DNA from: Armatimonadota bacterium
GTDB taxonomy: Bacteria; Armatimonadota; SYMT01
DNA: 64,000 bases
Direction of reading: 5' to 3'
Assembly: GCA_041690135.1 (NCBI GenBank)
Contig: JAWLHY010000012.1
Coordinates: 192,001-256,000 of the forward strand
Shown here in pieces: positions 23,301-25,754 of the stretch. The notes beneath the pieces are model-generated. The model worked only from the letters and a program-made list of their open reading frames with translations. It made no database searches and had not been told where the DNA came from. Position 1 is the stretch's first letter, and every line of letters starts with the position of its first letter. Position numbers and translations under genes: made by a program.

Positions 23301-25754
23301 TATCGTAATGTGGAAGACGTAAAGGCGCAAGTCCGAGCCGCTTATGATGCGGAATACACCCGACGACAAGGAACAGCAGATGCCATCCCCGACTCCCTCC
23401 ACCGCGGGTTCACGGGTTCTTACGCCCGAAATGCAACAGGAACTCGAGATCTTCAAGGAAAACCTCAATCAGGTCCGGAAGGAAGCGGCGGAAAGGCAGC
23501 GCCAGAAGATGGAAACCTCCCGGACGACCCCGGCGACCCCGGAACTGGCGGAGTAGGCCCCCGCCCCCCTGCCCCTCCTAGCGGCGGTCCGGCCGCTCCC
23601 TCTGCCATACCTCCTCGAGAGAACGACCCCTCTTCCCCAACACCCACCACGTCTGACGGTGGAGCGGCTACCCCCGATCGTAGAAACACCACCGGGCTGG
23701 CCAACCAGGTGCAGGAGGGGGAGGTGGAGCTCGGGATCATCGCGCCCCCGGAGAAGGGGGTGAGCGCCGGGGCGCAAGAGGCCCATGCCGAGGGGAAGCG
23801 CCTGGTGGAGGCCGGCGGGAAGCCACTCCCGCGCCGCGCTCCGGCAGGGGCTTCCGGAGAGACGCCCTTCGGGGATCTTCCTCCCGCAGGAGGCCCACCC
23901 CGCGGAGCGCCGCCCGGTGACTCCGGACAACCAAACTCGAAAACCTCAACCGCCCCCGCGCAACAGCCGGGGGCGGTTAGATTTTCTGGACCCGGCGGGA
24001 GGAGGATCCCCACCGCACCCAGGCAGGGGACGGGCGCGAGGACCGCTCCGCCCGCTTCTGCGCCGGCCGTGCCCAACCAGCAGGAGGTGGAGCGGGAGAT
24101 TGATGTGGTCGTGGAGCGGCTCAAGAGCGGCGGCCGGAAAGGCAACGCGAGCCGGTCCTTCACCCGTGCGGGGGATGAACAGCGGCTGCAGGACCTCCGG
24201 CAGGAGCGGCAGGACCTGGTGCGCGGCCGGGGCGGGCGGTTCCGGGTCGGGGAGCCGGTAGTCGGCACCCAACACAACGGAAAGAAGGAGGCGCTGGTCT
24301 ACGACGGGATGGCCAGCGACACGCACGCGTACGTGAAGGACCCCCGAACGGGGAAGCGCCGGGCGGGCACGGTGCCGGTCGGGAGCCTCCAAAGAACCCG
24401 ATCAGCCCCACCTCAGTCGGATATGGTCGGCGTGCGAAGGACTGCTGAGGGCCAGACTCTACGGGTTCCAGGTTCTGGGGCTCCGGTAGGCCGGCGAGCA
24501 GATCTCCACGCCCGATTGGATGTGGCGGAAGCCACCGCCCGGCAGAAGCTGGCTGCGCTCCGGGCCTCGCGCCGGGGCGGGAAGCTCGCGTCGGAATTGG
24601 GCGGCTTCAACGACCTGCTGGAGGAGGCCTCGCACTGGATCGAGATCGGCGCGGTGCAGATGGCACGGGGGCTCGTGGACTTCGAAGCTTGGTCGCGCCG
24701 GATGCTGGAGGCGGTGGGGGACGAACTGCGGGCCACGGGGCGGAACGTGGATGAATTACTCCGGGAGATCTGGAACGCATCACGAAAGAAGTATGCGGAA
24801 GAGCGGCGGAGTAATCCTGCAGAAGGGCCGGAGAACGTTGAGCCGGATCATAAGCTAGATTTGGCGGTTGGAACGAAAGGTGAGTCGCAGGACTCGGCTC
24901 ACCCACTCCAGTTCAAAACCAAACCCGCCACAGCCGCAAGTGGCGAAGGTCGCCGCAGTCCATCCTCACAGCGCCGGGGAAGCGGAGGGGTTCATGATGC
25001 GTGGAGACAACCAGGCATGCCCAGAGTCCGCTGGAATTGGTCTGGTATTAAGGGGGCAATGCAGTCCGATCGAATCAACGAAGACACTCTGCTCGCTGCA
25101 GTCGAGGACTGGCGCAATAGTATGGAGCTGGATTTCTCGCGGATGGAGATTCGTCTACTTCCGCAGGAAGCGAAGCGCCGTCCCCATCTAGATCTTAGCG
25201 CAGATGTGATCAACGATAACCCTGTCTATGTGCACGGCTTTGTCAACGCAAGGAGCCCGCATGCAATCCATCTCTACAATCCCACCTCGGAATGGCCGGA
25301 CATTCGACAGGATATGCTGCGTGATCTCTATCGTGCACATGGGCGTGGCCTATTGTCTCCTCAAGACTTCCTTGACTTCGTGCGTGAAGCTCCGCGATTA
25401 GCCGAGGAATATATTGCGGGAACTCTGAAGCATGAAACGGGACACTCGCTTCTGGTCGAAACCTTCGGGAATCACCGCCGGCGGAGGTTCAAAGGTTGGC
25501 AGCGACTCATGCCCGATCATCTGTATGGTGTGATGGTAAGTGCGCTGAAGCTGGCTGGGACGAAGACTGACAATGATGCGATTGCAGATTCTATTGCGGA
25601 AGCGGTTGCAGAAGACGTGCGCCGGTGGCATACTGGCTATTATAGCCCTCTCAATAGTCAGACCTGGTTGGCCGATGCGGCCGATCCACATGGAGCTTGG
25701 GAACGTGCAGAGGAGGTATGGAAATGGCTGAAAAACGCTCACGACCGGCGGTAG
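20382..25754 (+). CDS. 1790-aa polyvalent ejection protein: lytic transglycosylase, zeta-toxin-like kinase, SH3-like domains, C-terminal HExxH domain
   Basis: QESGG...GAQGLMQL...ALAAYNAG (SLT, about 20460-20815); GGPGSGKS at 22893-22916 with VVDGTL and ILDN; IGA..MARG..DF..WS..M helical motif; HETGH at 25431-25445. Confidence 0.9.
23380..23556 (+). CDS. Nested +1-frame 58-aa protein, candidate antitoxin of the zeta-like domain
   Basis: AAGGA at 23368-23372, 7 nt before [35 protein letters not shown] is an amphipathic helix while the host frame is a low-complexity linker. Confidence 0.6.

Follow-up and report, generated by a model that had tools for sequence, protein, structure and literature searches.

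A 64,000-nucleotide (nt) stretch of DNA from an Armatimonadota bacterium (positions 192,001 to 256,000 of the forward strand of contig JAWLHY010000012.1, assembly GCA_041690135.1; the whole stretch is called the window below) carries a giant open reading frame (ORF) with a zeta-toxin-like kinase module. A small ORF with a start signal of its own lies inside the giant ORF at the end of this module and is the subject of the present analysis. The reading frame of the giant ORF is denoted F0, and +1 and +2 are counted relative to F0. The features of the locus, with lengths in amino acids (aa), are the following:

20382-25754, + strand: giant ORF (F0) of 1790 aa encoding a polyvalent protein of a prophage; it comprises an SLT domain, the zeta-like kinase module and another part at the C-terminal end (ORF list, Pfam)
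22704-23432, + strand: zeta_1-type P-loop kinase module, aa 775-1017 (Pfam Zeta_toxin, homologues, fold)
22893-22916, + strand: Walker A motif GGPGSGKS (confirmed by translation)
23344-23349, + strand: two upstream in-frame +1 ATGs (ATG 23344 and ATG 23347) giving 70- and 69-aa versions of the small protein, with no Shine-Dalgarno (SD) sequence ahead
23368-23372, + strand: SD-like AAGGA (direct sequence reading), separated from ATG 23380 by the 7-nt spacer ACAGCAG
23380-23556, + strand: embedded +1-frame small gene (ATG 23380-23382, 58 codons, TAG 23554-23556), putative member of a family linked to zeta-like kinases
23383-23403, + strand: N-terminal PSPTPST segment of the small protein, corresponding to the family 'PST' motif (MAFFT and hidden Markov model (HMM) alignments); overlaps IPDSLHRGF of F0
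23385-23411, + strand: conserved C-terminal motif of the kinase module, IPDSLHRGF in F0 (alignment with homologues)
23425-23523, + strand: long helix predicted for residues 16-48 of the small protein (AlphaFold2 (AF2) with family alignment, mean predicted local distance difference test (pLDDT) 76)
23433-23690, + strand: G/P/E-rich 'linker' of F0 with rare A/T-ending codons and a GC content at third codon positions (GC3) of 0.46-0.51; the portion as far as 23556 represents the small gene read out of frame
23461-23469, + strand: family motif N-L-N within the predicted helix (conservation in the family alignment)

The preliminary description had reported an AAGGA 7 nt before ATG 23380, opening a 58-aa ORF in the +1 frame, and both the sequence and its translation confirm this. 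The ORF had also been placed right behind the kinase domain; it does adjoin the end of the module, but it starts inside the last conserved motif, with about 10 codons of the F0 motif lying past the ATG. The start codon is ambiguous between ATG 23380, which is preceded by the SD and gives an MPSP start, and ATG 23344, which lies at the position typical of the fusion-type family members described below but is without an SD. The MPSP start resembles an MPST start that was recorded by a metagenome gene caller for a free-standing member. As read from its sequence, the small protein has no signal peptide, no cysteine and no hydrophobic stretch, and AF2 predicts a disordered N-terminus followed by the single helix listed above.

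The GC3 of the main frame falls to 0.46-0.51 across 23232-23681; with respect to the overlap, F0 GC3 is 0.61 upstream, 0.44 within and 0.73 downstream. In the +1 frame of the ORF the GC content at codon positions one, two and three is 0.61, 0.44-0.475 and 0.74-0.746, respectively. The codon-usage score over 23380-23556 is +0.29 bits/codon in the +1 frame versus -0.26 in F0, and this is the sole site in the 5.4-kb gene at which an alternative frame scores positively (+0.25 to +0.33 bits/codon, against -0.3 to -0.5 for F0). SD 5-mers were found ahead of 17% of 1511 confident starts in this genome, compared with 3% in a control interval. The scan of 22800-23900 yielded no promoter-like site and one terminator-like site on the minus strand, which is within the expectation from shuffling. 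Among the sequencing runs listed for the stretch there is none of RNA. A soil-metagenome DNA run contributed a single 151-nt contig identical to 23420-23569, left the remainder uncovered and is uninformative on expression, variation and habitat.

By themselves, the ORF and its SD do not exceed chance expectation. The 1948 confident genes of this genome contain 0.62 same-strand out-of-frame ATG ORFs of 58 aa or longer per kb; with an SD-like 5-mer required, the rate is 0.016 per kb, or about one per 64 kb of coding sequence. It is the comparative evidence that raises the ORF above this level.

Recurrence and conservation of the small gene

For the comparison, 85 loci were chosen via the kinase alone (80 loci from IMG/VR, obtained with a Walker A pattern and tblastn, four genome loci and the window), the selection being blind to the small ORF that was counted. 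Each locus was scanned for ATG ORFs whose start lies no more than 150 nt from the equivalent of aa 1000, and the longest was taken, with a threshold of at least 45 aa. The first two loci compared, L004 and L005, are bacterial and from the same phylum, and both have a +1 ATG ORF with a strong SD at the kinase end. Altogether, a +1 ATG ORF above the threshold (range 48-100 aa) was present at the equivalent position in 82 of the 85 loci, over a GC range of 0.36-0.72, which corresponds to 43 of 46 clusters when the kinases are grouped at 90% identity and to 25 of 27 when they are grouped at 60%. No cluster has a +2 ORF that overlaps the kinase frame. When the anchor was shifted into the kinase, ORFs were counted in 6/26, 5/25 and 5/25 cases, and anchors shifted downstream gave 4/9 and 3/8. 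Among the clusters with a GC content below 0.56, the +1 ORF was present in 9/9, versus 2/9, 1/9 and 0/9 for the controls.

The exceptions are of different kinds. In L055 the +1 frame contains the family sequence, but the ATG is absent from its usual position; the 53-aa member in L067 was missed by the scan; and L064 is without the ORF. At a further locus, L017 (G409:C569, locus 1444-2064), a small-protein-like sequence resembling that of L004 is in frame with a truncated kinase ORF and represents either an in-frame fusion or a frameshifted relic.

Two layouts were distinguished. In the free-standing layout the kinase ORF ends 6-23 codons past the anchor, and the small gene overlaps its last 38-119 nt, runs on and fits tightly ahead of the next gene. 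Several free-standing cassettes lie just upstream of terminase genes; in the IMG/VR loci L020, L045 and L060, the kinase and the small gene stand directly upstream of the genes for the small and large terminase subunits. In the fusion layout, which was found in 20 of the 27 clusters including the window, the kinase frame extends further by 55 to more than 500 codons and encloses the small ORF completely. The existence of both a free-standing overlapping form and a fused embedded form supports the earlier proposal that a toxin-antitoxin-like cassette was captured inside the giant ORF.

Since IPDSLHRGF falls on the C-terminal motif that is conserved among the kinase modules, the giant-protein frame is ancestral across ATG 23380. 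The opposite arrangement, with an ancestral +1 frame and F0 as a frameshifted segment, was rejected, because F0 holds the family-wide C-terminal motif across the ATG and is open in the 20 fusion clusters. An assembly frameshift has no support, the identical layout recurring in independent contigs.

Standard annotation had been expected to overlook such an ORF, and this is the case in the GenBank phage record MW202577.1 (26709-32374; L099). There, the zeta-like module forms the C-terminal end of an 879-aa coding sequence named 'thymidylate kinase', and a 40-aa +1 ORF with the residues GLNQA, which overlaps the end of that coding sequence (locus about 3130-3290), is unannotated. The metagenome gene caller mentioned above logged the free-standing small ORF as a protein of its own, but only from an internal Met.

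The substitution pattern was evaluated separately for the two layouts. In the non-overlapped part of the free-standing small genes, the ratio of nonsynonymous to synonymous substitution rates (dN/dS) had a median of 0.23 (30 pairs with a proportion of synonymous differences (pS) of 0.08-0.6) and was below 0.5 in 20 of the 30 pairs; the closest pairs combined a pS of 0.28-0.42 with a proportion of nonsynonymous differences (pN) of 0.00-0.06. In four pairs of related fusion loci the differences in the embedded ORF at +1 codon positions 1/2/3 amounted to 4/4/16, 11/8/22, 7/5/21 and 9/11/12, three of the four pairs following the +1 substitution phase. Moreover, the mean F0 GC3 of the fusion loci fell from 0.663 upstream to 0.440 in the overlap and was lower there in 17 of 19 representatives (Wilcoxon p 9.5e-5), the exceptions L034 and L094 being low-GC loci in which the value rises towards about 0.4. 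Downstream, F0 GC3 was back at 0.7-0.88, and within the overlap the +1 frame had a GC3 of 0.7-0.85.

An SD 5-mer was located 5-17 nt ahead of the ATG in 14 of 25 cluster representatives, compared with a background of 3.8%, defined as the share of positions in the same ORFs (binomial p 4e-14), and the family ATG mostly lies 0-12 codons past the opening of the frame. Because SD 5-mers are enriched before the family ATG, independent initiation of the small gene is suggested. A conserved +1 ORF and ribosome binding site downstream of homologous zeta domains and purifying selection in the +1 frame had all been named as checks in the preliminary description. The first two were found, and the third holds at the family level, where dN/dS and substitution phase point to purifying selection on the +1 frame.

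The antitoxin candidate had further been described as overprinted on a G/P/D-rich linker. The overlap is real; the linker, by contrast, is largely a shadow of the small gene and not an independent linker. In F0 the recurrent 'linker' motif (Q/K/E)-P-(E/Q)-(P/S) results from reading +1 N-L-N out of frame. Its counterpart in the window is K-P-Q-S, which corresponds to the +1 N-L-N at 23461-23469, and in many database proteins the motif takes the form G-G-(Q/K)-P-E-P. As G-G-(Q/K)-P-E-P shadows +1 N-L-N in the loci for which DNA is at hand, the embedded gene is probably present in many further polyvalent proteins.

The small proteins share three motifs, namely P-S-T, (T/S)-P-A-E-H-R-E and a C-terminal A-E-x-L-A-A-G-L-N-x-x-V, which at the free-standing loci are conserved also in the portion that overlaps nothing. 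MAFFT places the PST, TPE and ENLNQV segments of the window ORF in the three family motif columns, and L29 of the window falls in the only alignment column conserved at 90% or more. With an HMM of 25 fusion-type peptides from which the window was excluded, the window ORF ranked first among 157,062 open stretches of the genome (E 0.018, 18.6 bits). Its C-terminal tail after the helix is unusually long for the family. The pairwise +1 similarity between the window and L005 (P 0.001-0.007) was not relied on, as F0 and +2 score nearly as high. In a second subtype of the embedded small protein, seen in the IMG/VR fusions L025 and L027-L031, a repeated 'Y-T-x-x-Q-L-x-x-M-P...Q-A...L' stands before the C-terminal helix.

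The small peptide of the window belongs to no Pfam or PHROG family, and the small family as a whole gave no Pfam match at or above cut-off and no PHROG match. A profile of 67 small proteins against PDB returned no chain at E<=10. In the word-indexed protein search no homologue was obtained for the 70-aa form of the window (38-123 aa length range) or for the 100-aa form of L004 (55-175 aa length range), and neither query gave a usable match in the ESM Atlas. The family is widespread, genetically tied to zeta_1-type P-loop kinases of phages and, as far as these comparisons reach, uncatalogued in Pfam, PHROGs and PDB. Its members combine a disordered N-terminus bearing P-S-T with a single long amphipathic helix that closes in L-N-x-x-V.

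Relatives of the window copy itself are distant. The kinase module of the window gave no match in the phage GenBank collection, in which a free-standing kinase query gave one record, and no close relative was found in genome, viral or metagenome contigs, the one metagenome match being 30% identical. One distant match was obtained among the genomes of 60 relatives, and 9 of 401 genomes of the phylum, G000 included, had a match. The word-indexed search of a 5.8-billion-protein set returned only 28-29% identical relatives of the window protein (984-3133 aa range), and viral scans with L021 and L070 for fusion relatives at middle distance gave none that were usable.

Kinase module and predicted complex

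The kinase module was assigned by profile, homologue and fold comparisons. Pfam Zeta_toxin (PF06414) matches aa 859-955 with 31.9 bits against a cut-off of 22.3, the match being partial (profile positions 94-188 of 199), and a profile match to the zeta_1 toxin of N. gonorrhoeae reached E 7.6e-19. Of the 1238 homologues that HMMER returned for aa 760-1060 at E<=1e-3, 441 reached E<=1e-10, and the best are 38-39% identical; many of the homologues sit within larger proteins of up to 5980 aa. The AF2 model of the module had a pLDDT of 90.4 and a predicted template modelling score (pTM) of 0.88. Foldseek ranked zeta_1 (6epg/6eph) at the top with a query-normalised template modelling score (TMq) of 0.79 and E 1.9e-11, followed by zeta (3q8x/1gvn), PezT (2p5t) and AvrRxo1 (4z8q). 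Residues G64, G65, G67, G69 and K70 of the Walker A motif as well as the candidate catalytic residues D92, R134 and R145 are invariant in 67 kinase sequences. From these residues and the profile and fold matches, the kinase looks active and zeta_1-like. Toxins of the zeta type phosphorylate UDP-sugar cell-wall precursors.

The complex of the kinase and the small protein was modelled as had been envisaged, and it passes its controls with a score of 0.76 against 0.40 for the best of three controls. Of 80 solved complexes, 58 attained this mark, as did 2 of 110 mismatched pairs; these counts hold only roughly here because custom alignments were used for both partners. At least 55% of contacts are shared among the runs, and the partner pLDDT is at least 63. 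On the small protein the predicted interface covers residues 12-40, and on the kinase it covers residues 56-62, 69, 72-76, 82-87, 114-120 and 167-187, the P-loop being 64-70. The modelled helix makes contact with three strands (56-62, 114-120 and 174-182), with residue 69 of the P-loop and with helix 72-76. Judging from the model, the small protein probably binds the kinase.

Known systems and proposed function

By profile and fold, the window kinase is nearest to zeta_1 of the epsilon_1/zeta_1 pair from a conjugative plasmid of N. gonorrhoeae (6epg/6eph), and the partner is here also small, combining a disordered N-terminus with a single long helix, which the model puts beside the P-loop. The two systems differ in that no sequence likeness of the small protein to epsilon_1 was detected and in that the kinase here is a module of a 1790-aa phage protein without the OB-fold domain of zeta_1. 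They also differ in gene order, the small gene lying downstream and overlapping the kinase in the +1 frame, whereas epsilon genes lie upstream of zeta toxin genes. With regard to an assignment to the epsilon/zeta type, no homology of the small protein to epsilon, PezA or epsilon_1 was seen in the Pfam and PDB profile comparisons, and the small gene is not upstream of the toxin but starts in the 3' end of the kinase sequence.

Streptococcal epsilon/zeta and PezAT (1gvn, 3q8x, 2p5t) share the zeta-type P-loop kinase (Pfam Zeta_toxin; fold E about 1e-3), although as a distant fold match (TMq 0.39-0.47). Epsilon is a three-helix bundle in contrast to the single helix here, sequence likeness is lacking, the gene order differs, and the small gene is overprinted here. 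The zeta-like kinase fold also matches AvrRxo1 of the Xanthomonas AvrRxo1-ORF1:ORF2 (Arc1) pair (4z8q, E 2.1e-3), for which a small binding partner, a larger helical bundle, is encoded immediately downstream. Those genes are separate and non-overlapping, show no sequence likeness to the present pair, and encode a type III effector system delivered into plants and not a phage virion protein.

With regard to gene arrangement, Rz/Rz1 of phage lambda and comS in srfA of Bacillus subtilis are likewise small +1-frame genes with their own start inside a larger gene. Rz/Rz1 spanin genes occur in embedded, overlapped and separated layouts in different phages, and the layouts found here, overlapped when free-standing and embedded in the fusions, are parallel to these. 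There is no homology, and the function differs, Rz1 being a lipoprotein.

A giant mobile-element protein that joins a peptidoglycan hydrolase with a zeta-toxin-like kinase agrees with the polyvalent proteins of Iyer et al. (2017; PMC5512222), who in the relevant parts of their article list a zeta-toxin-like kinase among the polyvalent-protein domains. In the main text of that article the word 'overlapping' occurs 0 times, and among 12 of its 13 places naming zeta, antitoxin or immunity, which are those considered here, none links a partner or immunity gene to the zeta-like domain. Literature searches found no published description of an embedded zeta-kinase partner gene, the supplements of Iyer et al. 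(2017) and Rocker et al. (2018), which may bear on it, lying outside their scope. The embedded gene is what is new compared with the known zeta-type toxin-partner pairs and overprinted phage genes.

The small-protein family very probably represents a real gene, and the window copy is likely to be functional. Taken as a whole, we lean towards a separately translated +1 gene of a kinase-linked family, the product of which would bind and restrain the kinase. Ribosomes would start at the internal SD and ATG on the mRNA of the polyvalent protein, and the product would bind to the kinase module, the small-protein helix lying against the strand of the P-loop and the strands beside it. The small protein may then keep the kinase inactive in the phage-producing cell in an antitoxin- or immunity-like manner, and may remain in that cell while the polyvalent protein is packaged and then ejected into a new host. 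In polyvalent proteins the kinase frame passes through the small gene without stopping, the 'linker' being the out-of-frame reading of the small gene, and the fusions may have originated from an overlapping toxin-partner cassette that lost the stop codon of the toxin. According to the passages of Rocker et al. (2018; PMC5923241) on these complexes, epsilon_1 lies extended on zeta_1 with its helices over the potential ATP site, and streptococcal epsilon neutralises zeta by blocking ATP binding. Because of this precedent, an inhibitor role would, by analogy, be the most economical reading, with a chaperone or subunit role as its main rival. The designation of the small protein as an inhibitor or antitoxin of the kinase stays tentative, close to evenly balanced. 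Somewhat more doubtful is the wider proposal that polyvalent proteins with a kinase 'warhead' encode their own immunity protein in the same gene, in the +1 frame, separately initiated and left behind at packaging.

Several observations weigh against this interpretation. As to the window copy, it is without a close relative, so the evidence for purifying selection on its +1 frame is compositional, and the excess of the +1 codon score over F0 persists for about 60-130 nt beyond the TAG. None of 20000 synonymous reshuffles of the main frame closed the +1 frame, because the linker is nearly without codons that have T at the second position and the F0 amino acids thus leave the +1 frame open. An HMM of 39 free-standing peptides left the window ORF outside the top eight and gave 5.8 bits in a direct test, and the pooled HMM of all loci ranked it second with E 2.9. 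The 18.6 bits of the fusion-type HMM come mostly from the PST segment, which overlies the conserved F0 motif and could partly be its shadow, and the +1 similarity score of 49 between the window and L005 is matched by 43 in F0 and +2. By sequence, the family membership of the window copy therefore appears weak. At the family level, the substitution-phase test comprises four pairs from two clades, one of which shows no phase. For the complex, a control with a replaced kinase still scored 0.40, so the helix is sticky, and a similar complex has been solved (epsilon_1/zeta_1, 6epg), so that the pass of the model may partly stem from memorised structures. Finally, the antitoxin label would be given to a protein without likeness to any known antitoxin, encoded downstream of the kinase.

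Among the alternatives, a positive partner survives best, although it is unlikely. In this case the small protein would bind the kinase as a folding or packaging chaperone, as a structural subunit, or as a specificity or activating subunit. The modelled helix contacts alternate residues of the three strands 56-62, 114-120 and 174-182, that is, one face of a beta-sheet and not the nucleotide pocket alone; the in-frame sequence at the kinase C-terminus of L017 would suit a permanent partner, and the downstream partner of AvrRxo1 has been described as both chaperone and antitoxin. On the other hand, the kinase module folds confidently alone in its AF2 model, its pLDDT in the complex runs is equal with or without the small protein (74-77), and the contacts include P-loop residue 69 and helix 72-76. 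In addition, the characterised small partners of zeta-type kinases treated in the relevant passages of PMC5923241 are all inhibitors.

Quite improbable is a relic, with a family that is real and an embedded gene that in the window is untranslated or unneeded and tolerated by the F0 linker. The missing close relatives, the family-typical start at 23344 without an SD, the long C-terminal tail and the weak score against the free-standing HMM would all fit a relic. The ORF is nevertheless intact, with all three motifs present and AAGGA and ATG in place, and its start resembles the recorded MPST. Its +1 codons are used as in genes and those of F0 are rare ones, a state from which a relaxed sequence would drift off.

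Programmed +1 ribosomal frameshifting, by which a kinase isoform would receive the helix as a C-terminal tail and no separate small protein would be made, is still less probable. The overlaps of 38-119 nt with the kinase gene are long for ordinary neighbours, L017 has both parts in one frame, and in L055 the +1 family sequence lacks the ATG in its usual position. The ATG is however found in 82 of 85 loci, usually close behind the opening of the frame, SDs are enriched ahead of it (14/25 vs 3.8%), the gene caller recorded the free-standing ORF as a protein of its own, and no conserved slippery site was noticed, though none was specifically searched for. A chance ORF in a high-GC genome, where a linker poor in hydrophobic residues cannot hold +1 stops, was favoured at first on the background rates and the reshuffles, to which the lack of a Pfam or PHROG family and of a small homologue in the word-indexed search may be added, but it was overturned by the comparative data and is by now highly improbable, given an ORF at the same place in 25 of 27 clusters and in all nine of low GC, a dN/dS of about 0.2 in the non-overlapped part, the codon-phase flip, the SD enrichment and a sample that is not biased because the loci were picked through the kinase alone.

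If a separately translated partner gene is indeed present, it would add a conserved, functional gene-within-gene to phage biology alongside Rz/Rz1, and an inhibitor role of its product would offer an answer, for polyvalent proteins, to the question of how the phage avoids harm while making a kinase domain that is potentially lethal to its own host. Loss of the toxin stop codon from an overlapping cassette would then be a general way of building toxin-immunity pairs into multidomain proteins, where annotation does not see them. Some 'disordered linkers' of giant mobile-element proteins may be shadows of overprinted genes, and gene callers systematically overlook such embedded genes. Moreover, the pair of kinase and small protein could give a new scaffold for peptide inhibitors against zeta-type kinases.

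Host protein, neighbourhood and further observations

The remaining assigned domain of the giant protein is the following:

20475-20768, + strand: SLT lytic transglycosylase domain, aa 32-129 (Pfam PF01464, E 2.2e-31)

The protein has the character of a polyvalent protein in that its 1790 aa unite SLT with a zeta-like kinase in a prophage-like setting. PHROG matches were to internal virion or lytic tail proteins and were obtained solely via the SLT part. The prophage-like neighbourhood includes a SU10_adaptor Pfam match at 8496-9359, and a LysR host gene follows at 27948-28841. The host genome has a size of 9.1 Mb and a GC content of 65%.

The giant gene is a mosaic in GC content, with values of 0.56-0.62 at 22500-23550, 0.53-0.59 at 24750-26250 and 0.70-0.73 elsewhere, which suggests modules of different origin. 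Outside the Pfam coverage, three 'LTPE(E/Q)LA(A/E)QDLA' repeats are present after the SLT domain (window 20382-21000), and an HETGH motif (HExxH, zincin-like) lies near the C-terminus of the giant protein at about 25400-25500.

Among the database homologues of the kinase module, the string G-G-(Q/K)-P-E-P after the module is common to P0020, P0028, P0030, P0031, P0033, P0052, P0086, P0111 and others. At the locus of L002/L007 (G033:C73, locus about 1100-3100) the zeta-like ORF is flanked by arrays of short repeats with a CRISPR-like look, the translations of the repeat units repeating 'SPLFVGAGVVT' in several frames.

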